NCBI GenBank assembly: GCA_051251855.1
Contig: JBPOGI010000002.1
Coordinates: forward strand, 608,001-672,000
Length of the DNA stretch: 64,000 nucleotides
Direction of reading: 5' to 3'
DNA from: Roseibacillus sp.
GTDB taxonomy: Bacteria; Verrucomicrobiota; Verrucomicrobiia; Verrucomicrobiales; Akkermansiaceae
This document shows, in pieces, positions 4,823-23,505 of this stretch. The notes below the pieces were generated by a model that ran no database searches, had not been told where the DNA came from, and was given only the letters and a program-made list of their open reading frames with translations. The translations under genes were made by a program, and so were the position numbers. Within the stretch, counting starts at the first letter, position 1; each line of letters begins with the position of its first letter.

Positions 4823-5533
4823 GTGATTCGACTGATTTATTTTTTCTCTTTCTTGTCCTTTTTAGAGGCTGCACCAAGGGTCGAATTTGAGAGTGTGCAA
4901 GGCAATACTGAGGTGACCATCTCGGAAGATTTATCGTTCACTGTTTCTCGGCCTTTGGGGTTCCAGGATGATCTCGTCGACTTTGTCTTTGTGGACGCTT
5001 ATTCGAGTTCGCAAGGTTTTGGCTCCGATGATTGTCATGTGGCTGGATTTCAAGGGGCTCAACCTCAAATCCGCATCAACGATGTCCTTGCCAGTGGACT
5101 CGTCGTGCTTTTGAGATGCCCCGAGGTTGATGTGGCAGCTACCGACGCTAAGATTTCAATTCTTCTTCCATCAGATATTTCGTTGGAGCTTGATGATGTG
5201 GTGAGCCTCTCGGCGGGCACTTATACGACTAGCTCGGAGCCGGTAGGAGGGCTTCCGTTGCCTGCCACTCCAGACCGTGAGGTGGAAACGGCCTTCCTGG
5301 CGCTTGAGAACGATAGGGTCTCGGAGAATCTCTCTTTAGGAGGTGACGGTGTCGCTCCCATTTTTGTCTCGATTGAGTCTCTGGCGGCGCAACCTCATGT
5401 CTTGGAGGTCGAGTTTTCAGGAGTTTTGGAATCTTCTTCCGATCTGGAAGGCTGGACGGTTTTGGACCCGCAGCCTACTTCGCCTTTTCAGATAACGACG
5501 GAGGACCCCGCGAGGTTCTTCCGAGTGAGATGA
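4823..5533 (+). CDS. Secreted hypothetical protein with C-terminal 'ESSSDLxxW...FFRVR' module
   Basis: Signal-peptide-like N-terminus; C-terminus resembles other secreted proteins in the window. Confidence 0.75.
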   Translation: MIRLIYFFSFLSFLEAAPRVEFESVQGNTEVTISEDLSFTVSRPLGFQDDLVDFVFVDAYSSSQGFGSDDCHVAGFQGAQPQIRINDVLASGLVVLLRCPEVDVAATDAKISILLPSDISLELDDVVSLSAGTYTTSSEPVGGLPLPATPDREVETAFLALENDRVSENLSLGGDGVAPIFVSIESLAAQPHVLEVEFSGVLESSSDLEGWTVLDPQPTSPFQITTEDPARFFRVR

Positions 5534-5760
5534 GGTAGTCCCGAGTTGCTTCGGAAACGGGCAGGCCTACCCTCAACGATCAGCGATGAAAGGTTGCGGC
5601 TTGAAAAGACCACGCTCCTGAGCCTGCGGTCCCTGTTCTCGATAATTCTTTGAACACAGTGCATTCGTCTGAAGTCGACCTTCCTGCGAGTTTTCATGCT
5701 GCCAACTGTGACAGCCATTGAAATTGAACAAATAGGCTGAGGGGCTCAGCTTTCGGGGAG

Positions 5761-7818
5761 ATGTTACGGTCTTTAATGACGGTGTCGGGCTTTACCTTGG
5801 TAAGCCGACTATTGGGTTTCTTACGCGATATTATGATCGCTCGCTTTTTGGGCACTGGATTGGTGGCTGATGCCTTCTTTGCTGCTTTCCGTTTTCCCAA
5901 TCTCTTTCGGCGCATTTTTGGGGAGGGAGCGTTCAATGCTGCGTTTGTGCCCTTGTTTGGAAAGAAAGTCATCGATGACCGCGAGGAGGGGATACACTTT
6001 GCGAGCAAGGCCTTTTCAATGCTGTTGCTGGTGTTGGGTGTTTTTACGCTGGTAGCGATTCCATTGATGCCGCTTTTGATGAACTTGGTAGTGCCGGGCT
6101 TTAAGGCGCGGGATGTCGATCCGAGCTTTTTTGGTAAAAAAACGGAAATTGTTCTCAGTGAGAAGCCGCAGACGATTGAGGTGGGGACGAAGGGGGCGCG
6201 GGCGATGTATCTCGAGATGGCCAAGAAGGGGGAGGTGAAGATTCACGAGATTGTTTACGAGACCGAAAAGAAGACTTTCAAGAGTCTCTTCGGCTCGAAG
6301 GGCGAGACGACGCCGGTGGTTCTGAAGGGTCCGATTTCGGTGGGTGAGGCGGAAGGGAAAACCCGAGAAACTTTGCTGGGGCCTTGGACAGTGAGCATCC
6401 CTGAGGGACTCAAGGGGGATGCTGCGAAAGAGTTTCGCAAAGATGCCGACGAGAAGCTGGCGATAGCAAAGCGGGATAATTTTGTCCTGGAGGGTTTGGC
6501 TTGGGACGGAGAAGGTTTTCAGGGGAAAGAGGGGGCAGAGGTCTTTAAATTTGGGCGTCCTTCGGGTAAAGCTGGCAAGGGGTTTGGTTGGTTCTCGGTG
6601 AAAATGTCGGGGAAGGGGTCGGTGAAGATCTTTCGCAACGACCCAGGCACTTTTGACAAGACGGTTAAGCTGACGCGCATCATGTTCATCTACTTGTTGT
6701 GCATGGCTCTAGCGGCGCATCTCAGCGGGGTTCTGAATACCTTTAATATCTTCGGAATGCCGGCTGCGGCTCCGATTATTCTGAATTTGGTTTTTCTGAT
6801 TTCGCTCGGGTTTGTGGGTTGGAGAGGTTGGCTGCCAGGTGAGACCTTGGCATGGGGAGTGGCGATTGCAGGCTTCCTCCAGCTTGGGGCTCTGTGGTGG
6901 ACGTGTTGGAAGAAGGGGGCGCCGATCAAGGTCATCCGTCCCAAGATGGACCCTGAGATGAAGAAGCTTTTTTTGCTGATGGGTCCCGGAGTGGCAGCGG
7001 CGAGTGTGCAGCAGATTAACCTCTTGATTGGTGGCGTCATTGCTTCCTTCCAGCCAGGAGCGGTTTCCTTTCTATACTACTCGGATCGCGTCTATCAGTT
7101 GCCTCTCGGTATGATTGGTATTGCGCTGGGAGTGGTTCTGTTGCCGGAGGTGACGCGCCAGTTGCGTGGTGGGATGGAGCGACAAGCAGGCAAGACCATC
7201 ACCCGTGGTATCGAACTCGGAATGCTCCTCACCTTGCCCGCTGCTGTGGCGATGATGGTGGTGCCGACGGAGTTGATTGCGGGTCTCTTTCAGCGTGGTG
7301 AATTCGTGCGTGCTGATGCGATTCAAACGGGTAAGGCGCTCGCGGCCTTTGGAATTGGCTTACCCGGCTATGTCCTTATTAAAGTTCTTCAACCTGGTTA
7401 CTTCGCGAAAGGAGACACCAAGAATCCAATGCGAATGGCGATTATTATGGTGTCTGTGAACATTGTGGTGAGCCTTCTCCTCTTTCCTTGGCTTGGTCAC
7501 GTCGGTCTTGCAATTGCGACTTCGGTGGCGGCTTGGGTGAACGTCTTTATGCTTTGGAAAGGCCTGAATGGGTTCGTGACTATGAGTGAAGGCACGGTCT
7601 TCAAGTTGGGTCGCATGGTGTTGGCCAGTGTCCTGATGGGAGTGGTGCTCTTCTTCGCAGCGAAGGGGTTGGCTCCTTGGTTCGAGGCGGGTGCGTTTCA
7701 GCGAATCGTAGCAATGGTCATTCTGGTTGGGACAGGGGCTTCGGCCTTTGGAGCGCTGGCGATTTTCCTACGTGCGACCAGTGTGACTGATTTGAAGGCT
7801 GGATTTGGCCGTTCGTAA
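5761..7818 (+). CDS. murJ: Lipid II flippase MurJ (MviN) with large internal insertion
   Basis: SRLLGFLRD, ADAFFAAFRFPNLFRRIFGEGAFNAAFVP and YYSDRVYQLPLG motifs; 685 aa, longer than the usual ~510-520. Confidence 0.95.
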   Translation: MLRSLMTVSGFTLVSRLLGFLRDIMIARFLGTGLVADAFFAAFRFPNLFRRIFGEGAFNAAFVPLFGKKVIDDREEGIHFASKAFSMLLLVLGVFTLVAIPLMPLLMNLVVPGFKARDVDPSFFGKKTEIVLSEKPQTIEVGTKGARAMYLEMAKKGEVKIHEIVYETEKKTFKSLFGSKGETTPVVLKGPISVGEAEGKTRETLLGPWTVSIPEGLKGDAAKEFRKDADEKLAIAKRDNFVLEGLAWDGEGFQGKEGAEVFKFGRPSGKAGKGFGWFSVKMSGKGSVKIFRNDPGTFDKTVKLTRIMFIYLLCMALAAHLSGVLNTFNIFGMPAAAPIILNLVFLISLGFVGWRGWLPGETLAWGVAIAGFLQLGALWWTCWKKGAPIKVIRPKMDPEMKKLFLLMGPGVAAASVQQINLLIGGVIASFQPGAVSFLYYSDRVYQLPLGMIGIALGVVLLPEVTRQLRGGMERQAGKTITRGIELGMLLTLPAAVAMMVVPTELIAGLFQRGEFVRADAIQTGKALAAFGIGLPGYVLIKVLQPGYFAKGDTKNPMRMAIIMVSVNIVVSLLLFPWLGHVGLAIATSVAAWVNVFMLWKGLNGFVTMSEGTVFKLGRMVLASVLMGVVLFFAAKGLAPWFEAGAFQRIVAMVILVGTGASAFGALAIFLRATSVTDLKAGFGRS

Positions 7819-8024
7819 GCGAAGGCTTGAGTTAGGAAGGAAATTTTTGAGCTTTCCACACTCGGAGACTAGGGAGGAGGTATGTTTTTGGCAGGAAGAT
7901 CACTGAAATCATCCTTTAAGAATGGTTTCTTATGGTCGTTTTCCGCTTTTTGACCGCCTTAAGTCCTAAGGCGGTGTTGACGGTGGGGACCATGTTCGGT
8001 AAGTCGCGTGCGTTGGCGGACTAA

Positions 8025-9068
<1,044 letters not shown>

Positions 9069-9095
9069 GAGTTTCGAGTAGACAGATTTTTCAAG

Positions 9096-9126
9096 AACGG
9101 CGCGAGGTGACTCGCGTCGTTTTTTT
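9096..9126 (+). terminator. Intrinsic terminator after gap
   Basis: AACGGCGCGAG-GTGA-CTCGCGTCGTT stem followed by a T run. Confidence 0.85.
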
Positions 9127-9213
9127 GTGGGATTATGGCTCCTCAGGCCTTAGCTGGGTAAAGAATTTCATTTTTATCGAAATCTTTCACCCGCTTGCTA
9201 TGAACCAGGAGGA

Positions 9214-9927
9214 ATGACTTCTGAAGTGGAAGGGAACTTTCCACCTACCCGGTGGAGCTTGGTGTCGTCAAACGCTGATCAAGAGAATGAGGAGATCCTC
9301 TGTCAGCTGTATTGGCGGCCTATCTTCGTTCACCTCCGGCAGCGCGCTTGGTCACGGGAAGATGCCGAGGACCTTACCCAATCGTTTTTTCTCCGCCTGA
9401 CCTCTGATCACACATTTTTCAATGCGGATCAGAAAAAGGGCAAGTTGCGCACTTTTTTGCTGGGAGCACTCCAACGTCACTTGGCTGACCACTTGCGCTA
9501 TACCGGTCGGCAGAAACGCGGGGGCAATGCCGAACACCTTCCGCTGGCGATTTCAGATTCTGATTTTGAAGATGCCGAGCATCGCTATATCACCGCGGTT
9601 GATGATGGCGCCTCGCCCGAGGATGCCTTTGACCGAGTCTGGGCGAGGGACCTTCTGACCCGCACCCATCAACGAATCGCTAACGACTATGAGCGGGCGG
9701 GAAAGTTGTTGGAATATGAAACCCTGAAACCTGCGCTGACCGTGGAGGATTCCTTGGACACCGCAGCGGCGGGCAAGAGGCTTGGAATCAAGCAGTCCTC
9801 GGTCCGGGTCTTAGTGCATCGACTCCGGCAAAACTTCCGCGCCGCCCTCCGCGACGAGACCGCGCAAACTCTGAATTCAAGAGCCGATGTTGATAGCGAA
9901 CTCAGTCACTTGCGCGAGGTTTTCTGA
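9214..9927 (+). CDS. ECF sigma-70 factor of the kinase-associated type
   Basis: FPPTRWSLV N-terminus, LCQLYWRPI, DAEDLTQSFF (region 2), C-terminal HTH VRVLVHRLRQ; adjacent to a Ser/Thr kinase. Confidence 0.9.
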   Translation: MTSEVEGNFPPTRWSLVSSNADQENEEILCQLYWRPIFVHLRQRAWSREDAEDLTQSFFLRLTSDHTFFNADQKKGKLRTFLLGALQRHLADHLRYTGRQKRGGNAEHLPLAISDSDFEDAEHRYITAVDDGASPEDAFDRVWARDLLTRTHQRIANDYERAGKLLEYETLKPALTVEDSLDTAAAGKRLGIKQSSVRVLVHRLRQNFRAALRDETAQTLNSRADVDSELSHLREVF

Positions 9928-9933
9928 TTTTTT

Positions 9934-9962
9934 TGAAACGAATTCGGAAGGAAGGCGAAAGA
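9934..9962 (+). promoter_or_regulatory. Putative ECF promoter (TGAAACG-N15-CGAAAGA) upstream of the kinase
   Basis: Same bipartite motif and 15-nt spacer as the copies at 14225-14253 and 18530-18558. Confidence 0.65.
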
Positions 9963-9981
9963 CTAAGGAAAGAGAACTTGA

Positions 9982-11520
9982 ATGAGTGAACCCGAATCGA
10001 ACTGCCCCTCCTGCTCCTTGCCCATCCAGGGAGGAACAGCCGGAGGCCTTTGTCCTCGCTGCTCGCTCGACTCGGTCTTATTTCAGGAAGAAAGTGTAGT
10101 GAAGAGTCAGCCCGGAGTTCTGGAGATTGAGGGAATCGAACTGCAGGCCGAGATTGGGGAGGGAGGATTCGGGATTGTCTATCGAGCCAACCAGACGGGA
10201 ATCGTCCGCCGCAAAGTGGCCCTCAAAGTCCTCAAACCCGGGGTCGATACGCGCCAAGTTTTGCGCCGCTTCGAAGTCGAACGCCAAGCCCTCGCGCATC
10301 TGGAGCATCCGGGCATTGCGCGATTCTACGAAGCGGGACAAACCAAAGAAGGCTACCCGTATTTCACGATGGAATTGGTGGAAGGAGTTCCCATCAACGA
10401 AGTGCTTGGCGGGCAGCCCTTGACGGATGTTATGGGCCTGTTTCTTCAAGTCTGTGAAAGCGTGGCCCACGCGCACGACCAAGGAATTCTGCACCGCGAT
10501 TTGAAACCGGGGAACATCCTCGTCACTCCTGCCGGAGCGCCCAAGGTCATCGACTTCGGCCTCGCCAAAGCGCTCGACGCTGAACAAGCGCCCGGCATGA
10601 CTCTCTACACCGGAGGGGAAGCTTGGCTCGGAACCCCGGGATATGCTGCTCCTGAACAGCTGAATGCGAGCGAGATTCAGCTCGATGAAAGAGCCGACGT
10701 TTTTTCGCTCGGGGCGATCCTTTATCATCTCCTCACCGGCTTGAACCCTGGAGACGCACGTGAGATGGCGACGCTCCCTGATACTCTTCCGCCTCCGTCG
10801 GAGATTGCTCTTCAAAAAATCGATCCCGCTTTGGATGCGATTACCCTGCATGCTCTCTCGTCCAATCGGGAAGAGCGCTACTCTTCGGTGCGGGCTCTCA
10901 TGGCCGACCTTCGCCGTTATCGCAATGGTGATGCGCTCTCTATCAAAGCGCCAAAACGCCGCTCCTTCAAGGGGCTACTATTCTCAGGCGCTCTCATCCT
11001 TTCTCTTGTTGCTGGCTGGATAATTTATTCCAGCACAAATCGAAATACCAACGAACCAACTGAGGTCATCTCAATCGAAAGTGACTATCATGGTTTCACT
11101 TTTGAAGAGATTGGCTTCATCAAGCTTACCGATGAGGAAGAAAGCATCCCGCCCTTCGACGAGTCGCGGAACTTTACCTGGATTCGTTTTCAGAAGCCGG
11201 ATGGGGGAGAGTTCATCCTTTCTTACGACGGTCTCTACCGCTCAGCGACCGTGACTCAATTTTTCGTCGGGGGAAAGCGTCCGGATGAACCCAGAGTGAG
11301 AGTGATTCCCGTGGATTCAGAGGAGGACAAGAAGCTCGTCCAATTATACGAAGGGCTGATTGAGAACGCCATTGGCTTGGAACAAGCGGCTTATCTCGAA
11401 GCCACGCCTTGGAGCGAACTTCCCAAGGGCAAGGGTTCGGAACAACTCCGCATGTTCAAGATCCTCTATGGGGCGATTGAGCTCTTCAAAATTCATCGCA
11501 AAGATAACGACTGGGAGTAG
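9982..11520 (+). CDS. Hanks-type Ser/Thr protein kinase with TM segment and extracytoplasmic C-terminus
   Basis: N-terminal CPSC..CPRC ribbon, GEGGFGIVY, VALK, HRDLKPGN, DFGLAK, GTPGYAAPE; TM segment near aa 332-350. Confidence 0.95.
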   Translation: MSEPESNCPSCSLPIQGGTAGGLCPRCSLDSVLFQEESVVKSQPGVLEIEGIELQAEIGEGGFGIVYRANQTGIVRRKVALKVLKPGVDTRQVLRRFEVERQALAHLEHPGIARFYEAGQTKEGYPYFTMELVEGVPINEVLGGQPLTDVMGLFLQVCESVAHAHDQGILHRDLKPGNILVTPAGAPKVIDFGLAKALDAEQAPGMTLYTGGEAWLGTPGYAAPEQLNASEIQLDERADVFSLGAILYHLLTGLNPGDAREMATLPDTLPPPSEIALQKIDPALDAITLHALSSNREERYSSVRALMADLRRYRNGDALSIKAPKRRSFKGLLFSGALILSLVAGWIIYSSTNRNTNEPTEVISIESDYHGFTFEEIGFIKLTDEEESIPPFDESRNFTWIRFQKPDGGEFILSYDGLYRSATVTQFFVGGKRPDEPRVRVIPVDSEEDKKLVQLYEGLIENAIGLEQAAYLEATPWSELPKGKGSEQLRMFKILYGAIELFKIHRKDNDWE

Positions 11521-11565
11521 AGGCCGCAGAAATAGAGCCATTCCACTGAAGTTGACCCCGTCCGT

Positions 11566-14184
11566 TCAAGGTCCGCTGATTTGTAGGCGATAGAAGCGGT
11601 GTCCTTCAGCCGGCGGTGCGCTTGTATCGAGGAAGGTGGCCGTTCCTCCAGCTGCGCGATAGCGAATCTGATTATCGTCCAAGTCCAGAAACTGCCACGG
11701 TGAGTCCAAGTGATCGGTGTATTCAATCTCGTAAGCGCGATTGGAAAGGTAATCAAAACTGAGGGTGGGAGACTGGTTAGGAGTCTCGAAGGAAAGCAAG
11801 GTCTCGCAGAGCCGCTCCATGGGATCCACCGGACTCAAGCCGAGCAAATACTCCCCGTCATTGCTTAAACCGTCGTGGTCGAAGTCTGCTGTCCTTGCGA
11901 GAACTTCTCCCGCAGTCGCCAGCGACCATTCTTCGTAAGTTTGATATCCCGCAAGCTCGTTAATCCAGGCGGTGATGAGAGCCACTCCGTCCTCGTCCAC
12001 GACATGACTCGAGATGGGTGGCATTTGCGAGGACCCACGGGTCGAGATGCGGGAGAGCAGCATCGAGTTTGTCGGCGACCCCGGAACAATGACGCGGCTC
12101 GCGGTATTGTCGCCATTGTCACCCAGCACACCATTGATGATTCCAGCCTCGGCCAGTGGAGTCTGTAGTCGGCCATCCCACGCAGCCAGTCCGGAACCAT
12201 CATGGCAATTCGCACAGTTTGCCTGCAGATAGGAACGGGCGCGAAATTCGACGCTGACATCGACCGCAGAAGTGGGAGCGAGAGCGGGGAGGGAACGATG
12301 GGAAGGGGGCGTGTTTTCAAAGTAACCCATCGTGTTCAAGGCCGACAATTGATTGTGATCCTCAGACCCAAAGAGTCTCGTCCGATTCAGTTGGGCACTA
12401 TCGAAACCCAAGGCCCAACCGCTGTCTGGAGTGTGACAACTGATGCAATTTGATCGTGAAGGGTAGTCCCACCTCTGCGTCACGGCCAGACCATCGATGA
12501 TTCGATTGAGGTCTTCGGTGGCTCCTTCTTCCGGCACCAGCACGGCATCGGTCTGACTTGGATTCCAGCGATAGGTCACGCCGTAAACATCCGTCTCTGT
12601 CTTTACCAAGAAGCGCGTCTCCAGTCGGCGGGCGGTAGCAGGGTCACCTTCGGTCAATTCAATGTCAAAGTGTTTGATCCAAACGCTGCCCGTCGGAAAG
12701 GTAAAGGGACCTTCGGAATCGTAGCCAATCTGATCCGCGACCTCAGGCACACTTAACCAACGGGATTTATCGGCCCCATCAGACCAAAAGGGGGCATTGA
12801 TTTGGTAGGGGAGAATGCCTGCTTCTGGAACCAAGGAAGCGAGATTCGAAAAGGCTCCAGTCGCGGAGAGGGTCGGAGGAAGCGAATCCGTCGGTTCCGA
12901 TAGGTTGCGAACGATCCGTTGAACCGAATCACCATAGGCTATCAGCACATCTCCGTTCCTTGGGTCTTCCCCAAAGGCCCGCGGGCCAAATCCGTAGGAG
13001 GTTGCGACCACCTCATAAGGCACAGGATTGGCGCCATTCGGGATAAGCCCTCGGATTTCCCCGTTACCCCAATCTGTGAAGAGATACGTGCCACTCAGCT
13101 CAGGCAAACGTGAACCCCGATAGACCACGCCACCAATCACCGATAGTCCAGCGTTTCGCCCATAGGCATTGATTGGTTCCACAAAGGCTACCCCCGCTGG
13201 CGGCGTCCCTACTCCAGCGCCCGTTCCCTCCCGAAAGGGCCAACCGTAGTTGCCACCTGCTGTGATTGAATTCACTTCCTCAAAGTCATTCTCCCCGACG
13301 TCGCCCAGGAAAATGGAGCCAGACCCGGAATCAATACTGAACCTCCATGGGTTCCGAAGACCGACCGCAAAGAACTCCGTTCGCAGATCGGCTGCGGCCA
13401 CCGAGAGGCCGTTAAATTCCGTCGCTCCCACGAAAGGGTTGTCACTCGGAACCCAATAGCTGCCAACAACGCTGGGATGGGGGTTGGGAGCGAGACTCCC
13501 TGGCAGGCCATCGACATCGATCCTCATCACCGCAGAGTAGAAATCCCGATCGATTTTCTGCGCGTTCCTGCGATCCCCACCATCTCCCAGCGACACATAG
13601 AGGAACCCATCCCCGCCGAATTCCAAATCTCCCCCATTGTGATTGCGCCCCCACTCATCGCCCGGCTGTCGGATCAGGACGCTCTCACTCGTGGCATCTC
13701 CCAAGTCCGCATCAGAAGCGTCGACCGTGAACCTCGCGAGGACGTCATCATGGACGATGAGCGGGCTGGGATTGCCCTGCGTATAGAAAACGTAGAAGTA
13801 TCCGTTCGTCGCATAGTTCGGATGAAAGGCCATCCCGAGCAAACCTTCCTCACCCGTCCCGCTTTCCACGCGGTCGGTCAGATCCAGAAATTCCTCCGGG
13901 ACAGGGTTTGCGAGATCCGGAATGACGAAAATTCTGCCTCCTTGATCGACAACAAAAAGGCGGTCATCATTCGGCGGCGAAACCAGATCTACCGGAGACC
14001 CCACAGACCCCAGTTGGGCATCTTCCAATTGGTAAGGCTCCAAGCTCAATATCGCAGGTGGCATTTGAAGGGTGGTGTTCGCAACCCGTTCTGGAATCTG
14101 CCCCCTTACCAGCGCACCGCCCAGAATCGAGAGGCTCAACAAACAAAGCACCTTGGTCATCGTTGAAAAATTATCAGTTATCAT
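11566..14184 (-). CDS. Secreted PQQ-type glucose/sorbosone dehydrogenase-like propeller fused to a diheme cytochrome c domain
   Basis: [26 protein letters not shown] and GLRNPWR motifs; [12 protein letters not shown]; two CxxCH (CISCH, CANCH); MPP distal ligand; start may be 14160. Confidence 0.88.
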
Positions 14185-14224
14185 AGCTCTGTAGGGTCCG
14201 TACGAGAGACTGTCCTCACTTCAA

Positions 14225-14253
14225 TCTCTCGATAAACGTTCCCAAACGTTTCA
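14225..14253 (-). promoter_or_regulatory. Putative ECF promoter (TGAAACG-N15-CGAGAGA)
   Basis: Minus strand reads TGAAACG tttgggaacgtttat CGAGAGA, about 40 nt upstream of the dehydrogenase gene. Confidence 0.7.
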
Positions 14254-14426
14254 GTCAAAATAGATTTTTTTGACCGCAAAACGAGCGAAAATAAAGTTCC
14301 TTAGAAATTGAGTTTCGTAAGTTTCGCGGTCAACTTGTCAAAGCATTCACGGAGAACAGGGAGAAGGTTTTAGCATTTTCCTTAGCTTGATTTCCCAGCA
14401 CGAAGAACCGTTGCTGTCCGATGAGA

Positions 14427-17400
14427 CTACTCCACGTTCAGGAGGTAAAAGGCGGCATCATCGAGGACGGGGAATTGAAATTCGATTTCGCCGGAGCTGT
14501 TGATGGTGGTTTCAGGGTCCGTGAAAGGGAAGGGGAGAAAGGTGCTGAGGTCAGTGGCTTTTTCAATCCCGATGGTCAGGGTAGCGGTGCCGCCTGTGAC
14601 TTGGAGCATTGGGGTGCCGACGTGGATGGCCTGGACTGCTGACTCGGTATAGAGCCCAGCAGTAGACGCGTTGGTCAGTAGGTCGTTCACTCTGTTAGGT
14701 TGTGCCGTTTCCCAATCAAAGCCGAAGCCTCGCAAGGAGTACTCGGCCCAGTCGTTCATGCCATCGCCATCGCCGTCTGTGGAGTGCGAGAGCCCTAGTC
14801 CGGAGATGTTGAAGGTGAATATCGGATCGCTGGAATCATTGGAGGTAATCAGAACGGAAGCGTTGCGCAGGGCAGTGCTAGGGCCAGAAGGGGTGAATGT
14901 AATGGTGAAATCAAGGCTCTGACTGGAAGTGAGATCGACTGTAGAGCTGATGACTGGCAGCGTCAGGCTAAACTCACCTAAGTTCGCTCCGCCTCGTGAA
15001 ATACTCTGAAGATCGAGATCAAGTTCGCCACCATTGACGAGGCGAAAGGTATAGGCCTCGCTGGTCCCCAGTTGCTGGCCATTGAACGATGCGGCGGCGC
15101 TGCTGTTGGTCAATTGAGTGCCAAAATGATCATACACGAGTAGTTCTCTTTGCCCAGAGATCGCAAATCTGTAGAGGTAGATGCTGCCGGCATCGGGGGC
15201 TTCATCGTTGTCACCGTATGCGCCGACAACGACGGAATCTCCTGAAATAGCGACAGAATGTCCGTAAAAGTCGAACGCCGCTGCATCGCCGGCGGTGAGC
15301 TTGGCTTCTTGGGACCATGAGGTTCCACTACGGGTGTAAAGATAGGCACTGCCAGAAGATGTGCCGCCATCATCGTCATTCAAGGCACCGACAACGACGG
15401 AATCCCCCGAAATGGAAACGGACTTTCCAAAGCCGTCATCGTTCGCCGGATCGCTCGCGGTCAGCTTGGCTTGTTGGGACCATGAAGAGCCACTGCGAGT
15501 GAAGACCCGGGCGCTACCTGTGGAAATACTTCCAATGAATTCCTCCTGTTCGACCCCGACGACAATGGAATCTTCTGAGATGGCGACAGAAGCTCCAAAC
15601 CAGGCATTCACCACAGGATCGTCTGAGGTGAGTTTATCTTGCTGTGACCATAGAGACCCACTACGCGTAAAGACATAGGCACTGCCAGAATTTGTCCGGA
15701 CATCATCATCTTGAAAAGCTCCGACGACGACGGAATCACCAGAAATGGCGACAGAAAATCCAAAGAAATCAGCTGCTGCAGCATCGTCCGCGGTGAGCTT
15801 GGATTCCTGGGACCATGAGGTGCCACTGCGTGTGAAGATATAGGCACTGCCAGATGAGCCTAAGCCGCAATTGTCGCTCCGGAAAGCTCCGATAACAACG
15901 GAATGGCCTGAAATAGAGACAGAACGTCCAAAGAAATCAGCGCTCGCAGCATCGTCAGCGGTCAGCTTGGCTTGCTGGGCCCATGAAGACCCACTGCGGG
16001 TGAAGACGTAGGCACTGCCAGAAGATGAGCCGCCATCGTCGTCGCCGTCCGCCCCGACGACGACAGAATCGCCTGAAATGGCGACCGATTCTCCAAATGA
16101 ATCACTTGCCGCAGCATCATTTGCCCTCAGTTTGGCTTGCAGGAACCATAAATTGCCGCTGCGTGTGAATACATAGGCACTGCCTGAGGAAATGCCGCCA
16201 TCGTCATCCAGTTTGACACCGACGACAACGGAATCGCCTGAAATAGCAACAGAATCTCCAAAGCGGTCCAACTCTGCAGCTTCGTTCGCGGTCAGCTTGT
16301 CTTGCTGGGACCACGAAGTGCCACTGCGGGTGAAGACGTAGGCACTGCCAGAAGATGAGCCATCATCGTCGTCTAGATGAGCACCGGCGACGACAGAATC
16401 GCCGGAAATGGCGACTGTTTTTCCAAAGTTGTCATTAGCCGCAGCATCGCTAGCAGTCAGCTTGTCTTGCTGAGACCATGAAGAGCCACTGCGGGTGAAG
16501 ATGTAGACCCCGCCAGAACTTAGACCAGCGTGGGAGTCACCGTTGGCACCGACGGCGATGGAATCGTCAGAAATAGCGACAGATTCTCCAAAGAAAGCAA
16601 GCGCTGTGGCATCGCCAGCGTTCAGCTTGGCTTGTTGGGACCATAAAGAGCCACTGCGGGTGAAGACATAAGCGCTGCCGGAAGCTGAGCCGGCATCGTC
16701 ATCACTGTAGGCACCGACGACGATGGTATCGCCTGAAATAGCGACAGAATCTCCGAAGTTATCACTGGCCGCGGCATCGCCAGCGGTGAGCTTGTCTTGT
16801 TGGGACCAAGAAGAACCACTGCGGTTGAAAACGTAGGCACTGCCGTAATCGGTGCCGATGTTGTCGTCAAGATTAGCGCCGACAACAGCGGAATCGCCGG
16901 AAATGGCGACGGAAATTCCAAAGTTATCACCAGCCGCAGCATCACTCGCGGTGAGCTTGGCTTGCTGAGCCCACGAAGAGCCACTGCGGTTGAAAACGTA
17001 AGCACTGCCAGAAAAGGACCCGTTGTCATCGTTCAGACGAGCACCGACGATAACGGAATCGCCAGAAATGGCGACCGAGTATCCGAAGTTGTCTTCAGAA
17101 GCGGCATCACCAGCCGTGAGCTTTTCTTGCAAGGACCATAAAGAGCCAACGCGGGTGAATAGGTAGGCACTGCCGGAATTTAGTCCGCCATCGTCGTCCC
17201 GATAAGCGCCGACGGCGACAGAATCCCCTGAAATGGCGACCGAGAATCCAAACCTGTCCTCCCTCGCAGCATCGTCAGCGGTCAGTTTGGCTTGCAGGGA
17301 CCAGGAAGAACCAAAGCGTGTAAAGATATAGGCACTGCCGGAGGCAGAGCCGCCATCGTCATCTCGTTCGGCACCGACGACGACGGTGTCTCCTGAAATA

Positions 17401-18401
17401 GCGACCGAGGTTCCAAATCTATCACTGGACGAGGCATCGTTCGCGGAAAGTTCGGCTTCTTCATTGACGATCAAAGGATCAACGGTCACGGGGTAGACGG
17501 CTTGGGCATCATTATAGGCAAGTAAAAAACCGGTCTCGATTGGTTCCATCGTGGCCGGGAGTTCCTGGCCTTGGGCATCCACGACGAGGAGTTTGGAATA
17601 GCTGAGCACGGTTCTCTTACCTTCGTTAAAGTTGAGTTGGTAACTGCCATCCTCAGCGGTATGGGCAGCCGCTGTGAGACCGTAGAGAGCGACTTCGATC
17701 ACAACCTCTTCGGTTGGATTTAGATGTGCGGGGCGTTGGGCAACGGTGTAGCCATGCTCCATCGCGACGACGCCATTATGATACCACTCGGTCAGTTCGG
17801 GGCTATGTCGATATTCGACCCTCGTGCTGGAGGTTTCATTTTTTTCAGGAGAAGCACTAAGTGGAATGTTGTTTCCAGCGAAGGAAAGCACGTTCATCTG
17901 CGCGGTCCAAGAGGTGGAGGCCTTCTCGGCATCTTCCTCAGTATAGGTCCGATCTGAGGAAACAAACTGTATCCCTTGAGGCCCAAATCTTGTGGTGAGA
18001 TTCTGCTTAGGGTGCAGGGCATAGAAATCGAAACCGAGGTTTTCCTCACGTTGGCTCCACGACTCAGGGATGGGTCGGATCTCACGACGCGCCTCCGAGA
18101 ATGCAGCCCAGAGGGACTTTTGCTCCGATTGAGAAAGCTCCTCGATCTCCTCTTGGGATTTGTTTGTCTTGTTAAGATAAGCAGGCGAGGAGTTAGTAAC
18201 GAGGTGGCGATTATTTTGACTAACTTCAGGTTGGGAGGGAGATGTAGTGGGAGTCAAAGATGGTGAAGATGTATCTGATGCAGCCCTATCAGTTTGGAAA
18301 TCCTCTTTGGTTTTCAGTTCTTTGGAGTCATCACTAGGCTTATATAAAAAGGCAGCTCCGATGAGAGCGATGACGGGCAGGAAATAACGGATATTTTTCA
18401 T
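14427..18401 (-). CDS. Secreted FG-GAP repeat (integrin-alpha-like) protein with C-terminal Ig-like domain
   Basis: Signal/anchor, N-terminal domain ending YPVTVDPL, 14 FG.SVAISGD.VVVGA repeats, then an Ig-like domain and C-terminal module. Confidence 0.9.
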   Translation of the reverse strand: MKNIRYFLPVIALIGAAFLYKPSDDSKELKTKEDFQTDRAASDTSSPSLTPTTSPSQPEVSQNNRHLVTNSSPAYLNKTNKSQEEIEELSQSEQKSLWAAFSEARREIRPIPESWSQREENLGFDFYALHPKQNLTTRFGPQGIQFVSSDRTYTEEDAEKASTSWTAQMNVLSFAGNNIPLSASPEKNETSSTRVEYRHSPELTEWYHNGVVAMEHGYTVAQRPAHLNPTEEVVIEVALYGLTAAAHTAEDGSYQLNFNEGKRTVLSYSKLLVVDAQGQELPATMEPIETGFLLAYNDAQAVYPVTVDPLIVNEEAELSANDASSSDRFGTSVAISGDTVVVGAERDDDGGSASGSAYIFTRFGSSWSLQAKLTADDAAREDRFGFSVAISGDSVAVGAYRDDDGGLNSGSAYLFTRVGSLWSLQEKLTAGDAASEDNFGYSVAISGDSVIVGARLNDDNGSFSGSAYVFNRSGSSWAQQAKLTASDAAAGDNFGISVAISGDSAVVGANLDDNIGTDYGSAYVFNRSGSSWSQQDKLTAGDAAASDNFGDSVAISGDTIVVGAYSDDDAGSASGSAYVFTRSGSLWSQQAKLNAGDATALAFFGESVAISDDSIAVGANGDSHAGLSSGGVYIFTRSGSSWSQQDKLTASDAAANDNFGKTVAISGDSVVAGAHLDDDDGSSSGSAYVFTRSGTSWSQQDKLTANEAAELDRFGDSVAISGDSVVVGVKLDDDGGISSGSAYVFTRSGNLWFLQAKLRANDAAASDSFGESVAISGDSVVVGADGDDDGGSSSGSAYVFTRSGSSWAQQAKLTADDAASADFFGRSVSISGHSVVIGAFRSDNCGLGSSGSAYIFTRSGTSWSQESKLTADDAAAADFFGFSVAISGDSVVVGAFQDDDVRTNSGSAYVFTRSGSLWSQQDKLTSDDPVVNAWFGASVAISEDSIVVGVEQEEFIGSISTGSARVFTRSGSSWSQQAKLTASDPANDDGFGKSVSISGDSVVVGALNDDDGGTSSGSAYLYTRSGTSWSQEAKLTAGDAAAFDFYGHSVAISGDSVVVGAYGDNDEAPDAGSIYLYRFAISGQRELLVYDHFGTQLTNSSAAASFNGQQLGTSEAYTFRLVNGGELDLDLQSISRGGANLGEFSLTLPVISSTVDLTSSQSLDFTITFTPSGPSTALRNASVLITSNDSSDPIFTFNISGLGLSHSTDGDGDGMNDWAEYSLRGFGFDWETAQPNRVNDLLTNASTAGLYTESAVQAIHVGTPMLQVTGGTATLTIGIEKATDLSTFLPFPFTDPETTINSSGEIEFQFPVLDDAAFYLLNVE
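15170..17460 (-). repeat. 14 intragenic tandem repeats of ~168 bp (56-aa FG-GAP blades)
   Basis: Recurring aggcactgcc..., gaaatggcgac and ccactgcg units; 14 SVAISGD-type motifs counted in the translation. Confidence 0.9.
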
Positions 18402-18529
18402 GTAAGTAAGACGTGAGTTTTTGAAAATTTGAGAGTCCCTATGCTATAGACCAAAAAACGGCTACGCGACGGAAAAATCTCCCTTCGGCACATCTTTCGG
18501 AACTGCAACGGAGACCGTTCTCATCTCAA

Positions 18530-18558
18530 TCTCTCGACAAACATCCCGAAACGTTTCA
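18530..18558 (-). promoter_or_regulatory. Putative ECF promoter (TGAAACG-N15-CGAGAGA)
   Basis: Minus strand reads TGAAACG tttcgggatgtttgt CGAGAGA; lies in a 56-bp block 47/56 identical to 14206-14261. Confidence 0.7.
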
Positions 18559-18747
18559 GGCAAAATGAATCTTTTTTTGCAGGAGAAATCTGAGAACCAC
18601 CAATTGGGCTGCGTTCGGCGCATAGATTGCGTATCGTGGAGGGGGGAGGAATCTCGACCGGTTTTTTGTGAGTATTGAGATCATGCCGATAGCTTTTGCT
18701 GAGATTGGGAAGAAAGGTTCCAGTCGATCAGAAAGTATGATGAGCCT

Positions 18748-20571
18748 ATGGGATTCCTGTTCTCTTTTTTCCTTATCGGTTCTTCTCTTTTAATGAGCAA
18801 AGATACCTTTGTTCCCATTCAAATGGATGAGGAGGTTCCCTCAAATGTGCCTGACCTTTGGAAGGGTTATGACCCGACGGTGGAGCCGTTGGATGTGGAG
18901 GTGGTGACTACTTTTGAAGAGGACGGGATTATCTGCAAATATGTTATCTATACGGTGGCTACGGTGAAGGGCGTTCCTTCGCGCATTGCTGCCTATTATA
19001 CTTATCCAAAAGGTGGGGAGAAGCTTCCGGCCTTTGTTTGGGCACATGGGGGAGGGCAGAAGGCGGATCGGTCTCGTGGTCTCTACTTTGCCAAGATGGG
19101 CTATGCTACTATCGATATCAATTGGAATGGGCGCGAGTTGGAACCGGGAATTGAGAAGAATACGGATTGGGGAATGGTCGACCCCTCGCAGGGAAAGCCA
19201 TTCTATGCGAAGGCTCCCCGCGAGAAGCGAAATCATGGAATGACTCCTGACGATTACAACATCGACCCGATGGTGAGTCCTCGGAATAAGTCTTGGTTCT
19301 TGCTTGCGGTAGCTGGGCGGCGGGCGATCACGTTTTTGGAACAGCAGCCGGAAGTGGATGCTGATAAGATTGGGTTCACTGGGTTTTCGATGGGAGGAAA
19401 TATTACGGCCTTTGTCGCGATTGATAGTCGGCTCAAGACGGTGGTGCCAGTAGTGGGTGGCACGGGTTTTCACTATGAAGAGATTCCCGGATATCCTCGA
19501 AAGAATCGAACTCGGCCGAATGGTGTTCTCGAAGATGCGACGATTGTGCCGCAGGTCTATTGGCCGCACGTCAAGATTCCAGTCTTGTTCATGAGTGGGA
19601 CGAACGACTTTCATGGGCGTATTGATTTCATGCAAAAGTGCGTGGATTTACTTCCACATGATGAGTGGAGCTTGTCACAGACGATGCACAATAATCACAA
19701 CCCAGGGAACCGGTCGTGGCTGGCGGTGGAGTATTGGTTCGACCAATATCTAAAAGGGCAAACTGCTCTCGTTCCAAAGACTCCCCAATCTGAACTCACT
19801 CAGAACTCGGAAACGGAGTGGACTTTTACTGTGACCCCGGACGCTGCGGAAAAGGTCAAGTCAGTGACTGTTTTTTACAGTTGGGATAGTGCGGTTTCCA
19901 ATCGCTACCACAAGCCGCTGATTCCAACTCAAGAGGGTGAGACCTGGTCGGCAACGATTCCCGCTCGAGCAGACTTGCCTCTCACGGTGTTTGCCAATGT
20001 TCACTATCAGACCCGTGATGGGGAATCAGAGGAGTCATTCACGGGGGTGGCCGATTGCTTTTCGGTGACCTCCCGATTTTATCGACAGATTCCTGAGAAT
20101 GTTCTTGAAGAAATCTATCAAGAGGAGGCCTCCAATCGAACTTTCGAACCGGTCTTTGCAGAGTTTCCGAAGGATAACGCAATGTGGGGAATTAGTAATC
20201 GCGACTTGAGCCTGCAGACCTATAAGTTCAATGACTTTGAGCTGAAGTTTCCTAAGGAAAGGAAGCTCAAGTTTGCGGTGGATCCGCAAGGAGGGAAAGT
20301 GGAACTCAAAGTCTACTTTAGCTCGCAGAAATATCGTGATGGCGAACGCAATGAGGGCAGCCGGATTACGATTAAGAAACGATTGACCGAACCGGGAGAT
20401 CTCGTGATCGCGTTGGAAGATTTGGTCTCAGCTGAGGGGGATCGCATCACCTCTTGGCATAATGTGGCCACGATGAAGGTTGTTCTGAGCGACTTTGGAG
20501 GTGGGGGCCCGATCGACCTGCTTGATTCTAAGGCGGAGCATTTGAAGAGGATTGAATGGGTTGATGAATAG
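18748..20571 (+). CDS. Secreted alpha/beta hydrolase (acetylxylan esterase/dienelactone hydrolase-like)
   Basis: HGGGQ oxyanion motif, GFSMGG nucleophile elbow, GTNDFHG, NHNP; signal peptide. Confidence 0.8.
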   Translation: MGFLFSFFLIGSSLLMSKDTFVPIQMDEEVPSNVPDLWKGYDPTVEPLDVEVVTTFEEDGIICKYVIYTVATVKGVPSRIAAYYTYPKGGEKLPAFVWAHGGGQKADRSRGLYFAKMGYATIDINWNGRELEPGIEKNTDWGMVDPSQGKPFYAKAPREKRNHGMTPDDYNIDPMVSPRNKSWFLLAVAGRRAITFLEQQPEVDADKIGFTGFSMGGNITAFVAIDSRLKTVVPVVGGTGFHYEEIPGYPRKNRTRPNGVLEDATIVPQVYWPHVKIPVLFMSGTNDFHGRIDFMQKCVDLLPHDEWSLSQTMHNNHNPGNRSWLAVEYWFDQYLKGQTALVPKTPQSELTQNSETEWTFTVTPDAAEKVKSVTVFYSWDSAVSNRYHKPLIPTQEGETWSATIPARADLPLTVFANVHYQTRDGESEESFTGVADCFSVTSRFYRQIPENVLEEIYQEEASNRTFEPVFAEFPKDNAMWGISNRDLSLQTYKFNDFELKFPKERKLKFAVDPQGGKVELKVYFSSQKYRDGERNEGSRITIKKRLTEPGDLVIALEDLVSAEGDRITSWHNVATMKVVLSDFGGGGPIDLLDSKAEHLKRIEWVDE

Positions 20572-20610
20572 GGAGCCTCAGGCTTCCTATTTCGAGAGAT
20601 ACTCTCAACG

Positions 20611-23493
20611 TTAGTTCTTGGGAGGGACGGTGACTTTGAGTGCTTTGAGAACCAGTTGGGAGAGTAAGCGATTGCCTTTCTCGTTCATGTGAACTTTGTC
20701 TCTGGTGAAGATGCCCTCGGTGGCCTGTTGAGGATTCTGATTTTTGAGTTGGTTGAGGAATGATTTCCGCAGGTCGAGGAGTTGGGAATTGGTTTCGCGG
20801 GCGACTTTCCGGCTGATGTCGGCGTATTGGTCGAGCATTTCATCGTCAGGGTTTGAACCATCGGATTTCTCGCCGATGACGGTGGGGGTGCAGAGGATGA
20901 CGCGAGCCCCAGCCTTGTTGATTTGGGCGATCATGTCTTTGAGGCCGTTTTCGAAATTTTTCGGAGTGGTTCCCTTTCTTCCGCGGGCCACGACCTTGGG
21001 ATGAGTCCAATGCCAGACGTCGTTGATGCCGATATAGATGAAGACGATGGTGGGTTTTTTCTGGAGAACGTCTTTGTCGAGGCGTCGCTGACAGTCCGGA
21101 ACTTTATGCCCACCGACGCCGGCTCCGATGAGTTCGATATTGAGGTCGGGGTGAGCTTTGGCAATGGCTTGGGAAGAGATAGCGATATAGCCACCTTCGC
21201 GGGGACCCTCGGCGGTGATGGAGTCTCCGAGGAAGATGATTCGATCGTTTTTTTGCAGTGTCCCTTTGTTAGGGTTGAATGTCTGATTGCTAATTCGCTT
21301 GTCGGCGCCGGTGGTTTTTCTGTTGTTGTTAGTTTCGAAGTTGTTGCGGAAGGAGTCGAGGGATTGGTCGTAGTCGATGTCGGGAACGATCCAGAGGTTA
21401 CGGAAGGAAACACCGGTGCCTTTATGGTCTTGGATCATGAGGGGACGTTTGCCGTGTTTTTGATAAGGCTTCCCAACTTCACCATAGGTCCAGGCGTCGT
21501 TGTGAATGAGGATGCCGTTGTGATACATGGTGACCCGGAGGGGTTCTTTGAGACTGCCATCGTCGTGAAACTCGGGGGCCTTGTAGAGGATGTCGTAGGA
21601 CTGCCATTCGCCGGGTTTCCGACAGGCATTGGCTTGGGGGGGATGTTGACCGTAGATTGAGCCGCAGTGGCCATCGGCAAAGGTGGGGTTTTGGTAGCTG
21701 TTGACGACTTGAAGTTCGTAGCCGGACTGGAGGAAGACGCCGGTGTTGCCGTAGAGTTGTCCGGTCCACTGGGGGTCGTTAGAGGGGTCGAACCGGAATT
21801 CCAGATGAAGACGAGCGGAGCCGTAGGATTGTTTGGTGGCGTTGTTTCCCTTGCTGCGCGGCACTACGCCATCGTCATCGAATTTCCAGTTGGGGTTGGT
21901 CCATTGGGAGGCATCAAGGAGGGTGGCATTGGCGGGCATGGGGACGGCGCAATCTTTTTCCGGAAGAGGAGTGACCACGGGTGGGAGGGGGCGGGTCTTG
22001 TCGTTGCGAACCCAACCGGAGCCGACGAGCTGAATAGCGTGAGCTTTCTTTTCGCGCGCCTCTTTCGCGGGGAGAAGTTTGTTGGCGGTGTAGTAGATGG
22101 TGTCAAAATCGAGGGGCTGGGAGTCACCGTTTTGTTGCTCGGGGAATTGGATGGCATAGACTTTTCCGGCAGTGAGTGGGACGTCAAAGGTGACGGTCTT
22201 CCCATCCTCCGAGAGTTGGTAGTTGGTGACGGGGATTTCTTTTTCATCCACCATGGGGGAGCCGTAGGTGCTGTAGTAGTGGTAGTGATAATTCCTGACC
22301 TTGGGGGTGACTTCCTGCCCGAGCGGTTGGGTGAAAGTGACGGAGAATCCGGTCTTGGTGAGCTGGGTGGAGTGGATCGCAAAGGGGGTAGTTTTGCCAT
22401 CCCACTCCGCATACTGGAGGGCGGTGCGCTTACCACCGGCGCTGAACCAACCGCGCCCGACTTGAGCGGACCAGAGGCGGCCTTGTTGGTCGAACGAGAG
22501 TTTTACGCCGCCGGAACTGGTGCCGCGAAGGAAGTCGACGCACCAGCCTTGCAGGTCGCCATCTACTTTTTGAAGGCCGCAGCGGAAGTAGTTCGATTGG
22601 CGCTGGTCGGTGAGGAAGATTTGATTTTGAAAGGGGCCGAATTTTCCTCCGGTGGTATCCCAAACGGGGCTGCCGGGTGAGTTGGCAATGGCTTCGCGAG
22701 GGAACCAGATGGCGGGAGGGGTGCGGAGCTTGTCGAAGTCGGCTGCTTTCAGGGAAAGGACTCTTTCTTTCGTGAAATCAGGGCGCGCTGGAAGGGAGGC
22801 AGGGTGTCCGTAGAAGTTGCCCTCGCGGACGTGGAAGAGACAGCAGTCGGCCACCCAATCACCTTGGTTGTCGGTGATGAAAAGTTGGTCGTCGGGGCTC
22901 ATGCCGATGCCACAGGGGGACCGGAATCCAGAGGCGAAGGGTTGGAAGTGGCCACGGCGATCGGAGCGGTAGACCCAGCCGCGCCAAGGGGCGGTGTAGG
23001 CCATGTTACCTCCGCCTTTCCCTTTTTCTTTACCATCGGGAACGATGAAGTCGCCACGGGCCGCGAGGTTGAGAGAGGCATACTTGCGCCCGAGCGAATC
23101 GACGACGGGACCATAGTGATACTCATGGTATTCCCCGGAGATTCCGAAGGCATCAGTGATGCATTCGTAGCGATCGCAGATGCCGTCCTTGTTGCTGTCA
23201 ATGAGGCGGGTGAGTTCGGGTTTCTGCGCGACGTAGTAGGCTTCTTCTTTGGGGTCAAAGTAGATGCCGTTGGGTTCCATGAGGTTCTCCGCGAACTTGC
23301 TCCAGGTCTTGTTTTGATATTCCCAGACTTCGCCTTCCCAAGAGACGACGGCGAGGGTGCCATCAGGCTTGTGGCAAAGGCCAAGCACGGTGACGGCTCC
23401 TTTGGGAAGGGGAACGGTGGTGAGTTGATAGCCTGCGGGAATTTGGGCGGTGAGGACGCTCGCGAGAGCGAAGAACAGAAAAAGGAATTTCAT
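20611..23493 (-). CDS. Secreted fusion: dehydrogenase-like beta-propeller + DUF1080 (3-keto-disaccharide hydrolase) + SGNH/GDSL hydrolase
   Basis: YHEYHYGP, SGFRSPCG and TDNQGDW (propeller); LHLEFR..GNTGVF..YELQV..GSIY..WQSYDI..QDH..VSFRNLW (DUF1080); FLGDSIT, GVGG, GIND and DKVH (SGNH). Confidence 0.85.
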   Translation of the reverse strand: MKFLFLFFALASVLTAQIPAGYQLTTVPLPKGAVTVLGLCHKPDGTLAVVSWEGEVWEYQNKTWSKFAENLMEPNGIYFDPKEEAYYVAQKPELTRLIDSNKDGICDRYECITDAFGISGEYHEYHYGPVVDSLGRKYASLNLAARGDFIVPDGKEKGKGGGNMAYTAPWRGWVYRSDRRGHFQPFASGFRSPCGIGMSPDDQLFITDNQGDWVADCCLFHVREGNFYGHPASLPARPDFTKERVLSLKAADFDKLRTPPAIWFPREAIANSPGSPVWDTTGGKFGPFQNQIFLTDQRQSNYFRCGLQKVDGDLQGWCVDFLRGTSSGGVKLSFDQQGRLWSAQVGRGWFSAGGKRTALQYAEWDGKTTPFAIHSTQLTKTGFSVTFTQPLGQEVTPKVRNYHYHYYSTYGSPMVDEKEIPVTNYQLSEDGKTVTFDVPLTAGKVYAIQFPEQQNGDSQPLDFDTIYYTANKLLPAKEAREKKAHAIQLVGSGWVRNDKTRPLPPVVTPLPEKDCAVPMPANATLLDASQWTNPNWKFDDDGVVPRSKGNNATKQSYGSARLHLEFRFDPSNDPQWTGQLYGNTGVFLQSGYELQVVNSYQNPTFADGHCGSIYGQHPPQANACRKPGEWQSYDILYKAPEFHDDGSLKEPLRVTMYHNGILIHNDAWTYGEVGKPYQKHGKRPLMIQDHKGTGVSFRNLWIVPDIDYDQSLDSFRNNFETNNNRKTTGADKRISNQTFNPNKGTLQKNDRIIFLGDSITAEGPREGGYIAISSQAIAKAHPDLNIELIGAGVGGHKVPDCQRRLDKDVLQKKPTIVFIYIGINDVWHWTHPKVVARGRKGTTPKNFENGLKDMIAQINKAGARVILCTPTVIGEKSDGSNPDDEMLDQYADISRKVARETNSQLLDLRKSFLNQLKNQNPQQATEGIFTRDKVHMNEKGNRLLSQLVLKALKVTVPPKN

Positions 23494-23505
23494 GGAGAGA
23501 GAAGA

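Follow-up and report, generated by a model that had tools for sequence, protein, structure and literature searches.

How an extracytoplasmic function (ECF) sigma factor is controlled when its gene is accompanied by a membrane kinase gene, and which genes it serves, are the questions raised by a locus of Roseibacillus sp. located in a 64,000-nt stretch of contig JBPOGI010000002.1 (hereafter the window, meaning the whole stretch). The best overall explanation, to which we give a probability of about 0.55, is that the neighboring ECF sigma factor reads the promoters of this locus through their -35 and -10 motifs and would drive the membrane kinase and two exchangeable proteins predicted to be secreted, and that the kinase would hold and release the sigma factor. 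The features involved are the following:

9214-9927, plus strand: ECF-type sigma factor of 237 amino acids (aa), with an FxxTxWS N-terminus, DAED, a long linker and a C-terminal extension
9934-9962, plus strand: promoter-like site 1, TGAAAC-N16-CGAAAGA, 6 bases past the sigma stop codon; predicted transcription start about 9969
9982-11520, plus strand: Hanks-type Ser/Thr kinase of 512 aa, catalytic motifs intact, one membrane segment at about residues 331-349
10003-10080, plus strand: CxxC-x12-CxxC zinc-ribbon-like motif and the next helix (kinase aa 8-33), predicted sigma-docking element
11038-11517, plus strand: outer domain of the kinase, putative sensor of about 150 aa, without a Pfam family
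11566-14184, minus strand: cargo 1, GSDH (PQQ-type propeller) plus diheme cytochrome c protein of 872 aa, predicted secreted
14225-14253, minus strand: promoter-like site 2, TGAAAC-N16-CGAGAGA; predicted start about 14218
14427-18401, minus strand: cargo 2, FG-GAP repeat protein with choice-of-anchor D, 1324 aa, likely surface-located or secreted
18530-18558, minus strand: promoter-like site 3, a copy of site 2 and its flanks; predicted start about 18523

A preliminary description of this DNA had reported the motif TGAAACG-N15-CGARAGA in three copies directed at genes, and a pattern search of the window returned exact matches at these three sites, all oriented toward gene starts, and 100 dinucleotide-shuffled versions of the window gave none. 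In the whole assembly (4.96 Mb), the exact pattern with a 15-base spacer matched these three places only; a spacer of 14 gave one place, and spacers of 12, 13 or 16-19 gave none. The first base of the motif lies 48 bases upstream of the start codon of the kinase gene (9982), 69 bases upstream of that of the GSDH/diheme gene (14184) and 157 bases upstream of that of the FG-GAP gene (18401), and the transcription start of site 1 was placed using the family-wide offset of the -35 box. As copies the three occurrences stand, but not as independent ones, since alignment of sites 2 and 3, both on the minus strand, revealed about 65-70 bases in common around the motif, which makes them one duplicated leader. 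The bipartite form of the motif was likewise retained, except that its seventh base (G) falls outside the core, where relatives carry A or C; position 3 is T or A, and the consensus across the relatives' sites is TG(A/T)AAC-N16-CGA(A/G)AG with a T-rich stretch in front. A counterpart of site 1 is also present in two close relatives (genome G235 and locus L185), and site 2 is conserved in genome G304 ahead of its 81% identical gene. When the scan was extended to relatives, the bare 13-base pattern matched in 100 of 401 family genomes and its reversed control matched in many too, so that per genome the pattern is close to chance; the evidential weight lies in the clustering and position of the motif and not in its count per genome. 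Relaxed motif counts showed no genome-wide excess at the right spacer, and a sigma-70 promoter and terminator scan gave results at chance level. Many genomes of genus g11 (G143, G197, G223, G279, G292, G298, G034, G086 and others), which lack the sigma clade of the window, also share two or three recurrent matches to the bipartite pattern; these would be conserved stretches of coding sequence or, alternatively, promoters belonging to another ECF.

The motif was more informative when the closest sigma factors and their neighboring genes were compared, namely those of G304 (89% identity), G235 (86%), L185 (86%), four in G256, G229, G095, and L112 (47%). A loose pattern gave 20 matches in 15 close-relative loci, of which the 14 immediately upstream of a module's kinase or cargo gene were retained and six were dropped (five within genes or unlinked, one without a long open reading frame, ORF, behind it). 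A matrix built from these 14 relatives-only sites ranked the three window sites first in the 4.96 Mb (scores of 30.8, 27.6 and 24.5), ahead of the next-best genome site (22.6, without a gene) and of the best reversed-genome control (23.0), with two of the training sites being orthologous to window sites and boosting their scores. The cargo behind the relatives' sites varies by locus (a subtilase, a laminin-G protein, a beta-helix protein and several proteins without a Pfam family), and among the 25 loci of the best GSDH homologues, eight of them not assessable, the motif preceded the gene in 2 of 17, those of the window and G304. The motif follows the sigma factor and not the cargo, because close sigma factors carry it before the kinase or before unrelated cargo.

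These comparisons also bear on the improbable alternative that the motif is read by another ECF of the genome, either a paralogue or a canonical stress ECF, and that its clustering reflects local duplication of a leader. The source genome (G000) carries seven other sigma genes related to that of the window; a kinase gene lies no more than about 4 kb from each, and similar -35 boxes occur nearby. Sites 2 and 3 are indeed duplicates. Promoters like TGAAAC-N16-CGTA, the SigW consensus being an example, occur with unrelated ECFs. Moreover, the available part of the ECF classification gives TGTAAC boxes for ECF120 and ECF231 (PMC7826278). Against this alternative, the -10 variant tracks the window sigma clade across genomes despite different cargo, the relatives-only matrix yielded no further strong site in the genome, and the motif is missing before the 15 GSDH homologues located elsewhere. 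The further pairs lie at C1:817891-820167, C7:238137-241061, C9:105036-108310, C13:12936-16274, C10:97868-104768, C6:437614-440334 and C8:258291-261205, the pairs on C6 and C8 belonging to a different sigma subfamily; TGTAAC, GGTAAC or CGTAAC boxes were observed 5' of the kinase, sigma or neighboring gene, and several pairs stand beside large secreted or PEP-CTERM-like genes.

The family-wide analysis considered 139 sigma factors less than 80% identical to each other, 112 with a kinase gene within 8 kb and 27 with none, many of these loci being short. The sigma gene directly precedes the kinase gene in 55 of the 112 loci, and the reverse order was found in 30. A [TCG]GTAAC/TGAAAC box was present within 100 bases before the start of 52 of 107 kinase genes, compared with 11 of 185 distant control genes, while the same box on the opposite strand was found in 4/107 and 30 shuffles gave a mean of 7.3 and a maximum of 13. 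In 14 of 58 boxes the first base lies exactly 35 bases ahead of the start codon, an offset that would fit the -35 element of a leaderless message. In loci with the sigma gene first, the box preceded the kinase gene in 28 of 55 cases and the sigma gene in 9 of 54, and this preference may explain why the search for self-regulation covered by the available part of the classification found no promoter for such groups (PMC7826278). The -10 part is clade-specific (CTTCTGA, CTGAAT or CGARAG). In 66 pairs, selected for possessing a -35 box, -10 similarity tracked sigma domain 2 given domain 4 (partial r 0.23, 0/500 permutations) and -35 similarity tracked domain 4 given domain 2 (0.127, 8/500) and not domain 2 (-0.03, 342/500); the spacers correlated with sigma similarity too (0.07-0.085; 17 and 5 of 500), so that relatedness inflates these covariation figures. 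Altogether, the enrichment before kinase genes, the clade-specific -10 part and the relatives-only matrix support the earlier proposal of an ECF-type promoter with the adjacent sigma factor as its reader and of a small local regulon of the kinase and secreted proteins; we consider it very probable that the motifs function as promoters. At locus L048 (G058:C191, 4489-8382 and 17548-19566), a sigma/kinase pair was observed with TGTAAC boxes before genes that by eye resemble type III secretion chaperone and secreted-protein genes.

A very improbable reading of the same positions is that the motif marks a recombination or cassette boundary behind cargo exchange and is not a promoter. While such a boundary would suit the different cargo of close relatives, the overlap of box and sigma stop codon at 11 of the 139 loci and the break of similarity to relatives at a divergent box, the motif always points to a gene start, keeps a fixed 35-base offset and covaries with the sigma factor in a domain-specific manner; besides, the aligned sites show no inverted arms, and no recombinase was found among the ORFs examined at 5000-24000.

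The gene at 9214-9927 encodes a divergent ECF (group 4) sigma factor, having only sigma2 and sigma4 and an ECF-like sequence and fold. The protein scored over the cut-off for PF07638 and slightly under it for Sigma70_r2 and TIGR02937 (39.8 bits, cut-off 42.9); its profile matched Mycobacterium tuberculosis SigE at 5e-07, its recognition helix aligned to GTVRSRIHRGR of SigE, and its best fold matches were ECF sigma factors. The labels of the preliminary description (ECF, kinase, PQQ-type dehydrogenase/diheme and FG-GAP) were upheld by the domain scans, some of them below cut-off. The FxxTxWS motif comprises F9, T12, W14 and S15, and the C-terminal extension carries T219, E229 and L233. Conservation among the sigma relatives is 100% for T12, 98% for S/T15 and 100% for S/T219, with the N-terminus holding the first two predicted at low confidence and likely flexible. 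The DAED motif, already described as retained, is located at residues 50-53 and is kept in DAED-like form (at least two acidic residues) in 134 of 139 relatives, with Ser or Thr inside it in only about 5%. The named relatives belong to Verrucomicrobiota, largely Akkermansiaceae; one genome scan gave 546 loci, with up to 35 matches in a single genome, and the best 80 of these loci were mostly from Verrucomicrobiota with a few from Acidobacteriota and Planctomycetota. No sigma relative was found in viral contigs. In agreement with the earlier statement that no anti-sigma gene is adjacent, a search of 9000-11700 for ORFs of 40-260 aa having a membrane-like segment gave none. Directly 5' of the sigma gene, at 9190-9205, stands GCTTGCTATGAA, conserved in G235 and G304, which may be an extended -10 element for the housekeeping sigma factor, in which case self-regulation of the ECF gene would be absent. 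Between GCTTGCTATGAA and gapA, at about 9096-9127, lies a hairpin with a T run, seen by eye and not among the terminator-scan results.

The kinase appears active judging from its intact motifs (GEGGFG at 59, K82, HRD at 171 and DFG at 191), which comprise the Gly loop, VAIK Lys, HRD, DFG and APE of Hanks-type kinases, and the catalytic residues are invariant across 46 sequences. Its outer domain gave no match in the Atlas or in Pfam and nine relatives among 1.84 billion representatives, several of them on similar kinases. Of the 112 family kinases, 77 carry the ribbon (CxxC-x8-20-CxxC across kinases), 13 from several clades keep the GLxPxxLL helix alone, 17 have neither and five are truncated. 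The cysteine-less kinases retaining the N-terminal GLxPxxLL helix are those of L086, L088, L096, L043, L128, L150, L180, L233, L093, L034, L045, L047 and L022. WD40 repeats were found in three of five sister kinases scanned and not in the window kinase.

Structure prediction suggests how the two proteins may meet. The sigma factor folded together with kinase residues 1-323 gave a complex score of 0.69, compared with 0.13 for the best of three controls; the former mark was reached by 116 of 157 solved pairs and by 2 of 215 mismatched ones, although these counts are only rough for the alignments used. At least 79% of contacts were shared between runs, and partner pLDDT was at least 77. The best predicted contacts join kinase residues 20-32 (the second half of the ribbon and the helix) to sigma residues 141-152, 175, 205-213 and 230-234, the pocket taking in residues 141-152 of the linker helix, 205-213 at the end of the recognition helix and 230-234 of a last helix specific to the family; additionally, the kinase lobe is predicted to contact residues 192-203, the -35 recognition helix according to the SigE alignment. 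All predicted contacts involve the linker helix, sigma4 and the C-terminal extension, and none sigma domain 2. Two highly conserved residues, R205 (98%) and L233 (96%), fall inside the predicted interface, and W143 and E229 (100%) adjoin it. A Trp in the last sigma helix was found with 8 of the 17 kinases lacking ribbon and helix, in two clades only, and with none of the 90 having either. Profile and fold searches turned up no like complex, with memory of anti-sigma complexes in the predictor being possible. The model supports kinase-sigma binding without showing it, and we regard binding of the kinase to sigma domain 4 as probable on the strength of the predicted structure.

If the kinase grips the sigma factor in this way, with its N-terminal zinc-ribbon helix in the pocket and its lobe over the -35 recognition helix, it may act first as a built-in anti-sigma factor, given that with DAED intact the sigma factor likely needs no phosphate for polymerase binding. 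The outer domain would then sense a signal and the sigma factor would be freed, likely after phosphorylation at T12 or S15 of FxxTxWS or at T219 beside the docking pocket, which are candidate phosphosites by conservation alone. As in sigma/anti-sigma operons, where sigma-driven synthesis of the anti-sigma factor constitutes negative feedback, sigma-driven synthesis of the kinase would have the same effect. Taken jointly, the built-in anti-sigma role, release by phosphorylation and negative feedback have in our judgment slightly less than an even chance of being correct.

A number of observations count against the explanation as a whole. The window offers only two independent motif sites, no box stands before 55 of 107 kinase genes, its enrichment is barely seen among non-kinase genes up to 5 kb away (31/386), and the covariation figures carry the selection and relatedness effects noted above. 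On the side of the complex, an ordinary sigma C-terminus accompanies 9 of the 17 kinases that have neither ribbon nor helix, similarity of the docking helix and of the pocket covaried at background level (partial r 0.089 in 47 pairs, with 30/150 random position sets as high), and the model places no conserved Ser or Thr in the kinase active site. Moreover, the precedents EcfP/PknT and EcfK/PknS are activations, and docking could just recruit a substrate.

The last point leads to the most serious rival, pure activation with positive feedback, in which the sigma factor would be intrinsically inactive (for instance shut by the FxxTxWS arm), the kinase would only activate it by phosphorylation and the ribbon would be a substrate dock. 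A conserved Ser/Thr in a flexible terminus is a typical kinase substrate, and the invariant T12 and near-invariant S/T15 sit in just such a region; the invariance of the catalytic residues in 46 sequences also speaks for this reading. In addition, the available text on EcfK indicates that it is also activated via linker sites outside the DAED region (PMC13147305). Two findings make this rival rather unlikely, namely that the predicted contacts mask the -35 recognition helix and that DAED is retained across the family. Hold-and-release is favored, and the positive loop with an activating kinase put forward in the preliminary description is not established, since the modelled cover of domain 4 fits an inhibitor at least as well.

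Kinase-linked ECFs without an anti-sigma factor are already catalogued (ECF43, ECF59-62, ECF217 and ECF283). The accessible part of the classification describes ECF59, ECF61, ECF62 and ECF217 as kinase-linked groups of Planctomycetes, with ECF62 and others given as 100% Planctomycetes without a studied member and the ECF61 and ECF62 promoters as "not conserved" (PMC7826278). The window locus resembles ECF62 in having no anti-sigma gene, a kinase gene at +1 with one membrane helix, and an N-terminal zinc finger (shared by 77/112 relatives), a likeness judged from the group description and not from its profile hidden Markov model. The main ECF62 subgroups have WD40 repeats in the kinase, which some sister kinases of the present family share; unlike ECF62, however, this family is mostly from Verrucomicrobiota, and in contrast to ECF61 and ECF62 its promoter can be read and stands ahead of the kinase or cargo gene instead of the sigma gene. 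For ECF59, the available text reports a longer linker and a Ser in the DAED region as the predicted phosphosite (PMC8103513); the window sigma factor has the long linker, whereas Ser or Thr within DAED is rare in its family.

The arrangement also recalls ECF43, in which a sigma factor likewise stands beside a membrane Hanks kinase with no separate anti-sigma factor. According to the available portions of the sources, ECF43 sigma factors lack DAED and are activated by a phosphate at that place, as in EcfP/PknT of Vibrio parahaemolyticus (PMC8999054), and EcfK/PknS of Xanthomonas citri is another ECF43 pair (PMC13147305). The window sigma factor has DAED at the place where ECF43 has an uncharged, Thr-bearing motif, and the pair differs further in the zinc-ribbon tail of the kinase and the N- and C-terminal extensions of the sigma factor. 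Retention of DAED implies that the ECF43 switch does not apply (PMC8999054; PMC8103513, as far as their available text goes), which supports the earlier suggestion that the mechanism may differ from ECF43. The class I anti-sigma domains RseA, RsiW, ChrR and RskA are described, in the part of the source at hand, as membrane-tethered, with an N-terminal helix on sigma domain 4 and optional zinc (PMC7406223). The window kinase is similar in its membrane tether and in the N-terminal helix predicted to lie on sigma domain 4; it differs in having CxxC..CxxC where class I (ZAS) proteins have Hx3Cx2C, in the lack of a predicted sigma2 contact where these have a dual sigma2/sigma4 interface, and in the fusion of the element to an active-looking kinase, so that release would be catalytic rather than proteolytic.

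What appears new here is the predicted docking of the kinase zinc-ribbon helix on sigma domain 4; no paper was found on the promoter of this family or on a zinc-ribbon dock or kinase-borne anti-sigma factor, in a search that left most subscription papers outside its reach and with Table S2 of the ECF classification as a possible place for an entry. The available text of PMC8999054 holds that DAED-keeping kinase-linked ECFs must work unlike EcfP and that none is characterised. The consensus, three test promoters, predicted interface and three candidate phosphosites make this question testable, and if the kinase does grip the sigma factor, the switching of a large, unstudied family would be explained without a separate anti-sigma protein. 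Extending this to a general rule is more tentative, and we hold it to be somewhat doubtful, that receptor kinases of Verrucomicrobiota and Planctomycetota double as anti-sigma factors in a one-protein hold-and-release switch, with sigma/kinase pairs as portable modules. Such modules would share the TG(A/T)AAC -35 element, combine clade-specific -10 elements and often leaderless transcripts with swappable sensor domains and secreted cargo, and may number up to dozens of pairs per genome. Considering the abundance of the family, such a rule would permit local regulons of secreted proteins to be read across these phyla.

The two cargo genes do not make up a conserved functional grouping and are swapped freely among close relatives. 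Secretion of both products is predicted from their hydrophobic N-termini and C-terminal domains. The diheme part of cargo 1 is TIGR03806-like (215 bits, under the cut-off of 313) with CxxCH at 580 and 657, and cargo 2 has 14 FG-GAP_2 stretches in addition to choice-of-anchor D. A trace of a further site lies on the other side of the sigma gene:

9150-9190, minus strand: scar left by a fourth site in divergent orientation; the sequence becomes similar to those of G235, G304 and L185 from about 9160

In these three relatives, TGTAAC-N16-CGARAGA faces away from the sigma gene and precedes a further cargo gene, whereas the window lacks both, the box being lost exactly where similarity to the relatives begins. 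The DNA past gapA differs in five of five congeners, which marks the module as a lineage-specific insertion. In G304 (locus L265, C34, 1589-1765), the GSDH gene and another cargo gene, both equipped with a motif of their own, are separated by a 60-codon remnant of the FG-GAP gene, a trace of cargo replacement.

The last 128 aa of the GSDH protein (window 11566-11950) form an unnamed C-terminal domain typical of secreted proteins of Verrucomicrobiota, with the pattern DxDxDG..N..EY..G..P...Y.VE.S.DL..W...RFYRL, possibly an export or anchoring signal. About 86 proteins of the source genome match its profile, which spans only part of the domain and matches the FG-GAP protein weakly, and the corresponding Atlas clusters have no common Pfam family. 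Enrichment of the domain near sigma/kinase pairs was considered and rejected (5/86 versus about 3.2 expected). Upstream in the window, 5761-7818 presumably encodes a MurJ-like flippase, the product of which has an unusual hydrophilic insertion of about 180 residues.

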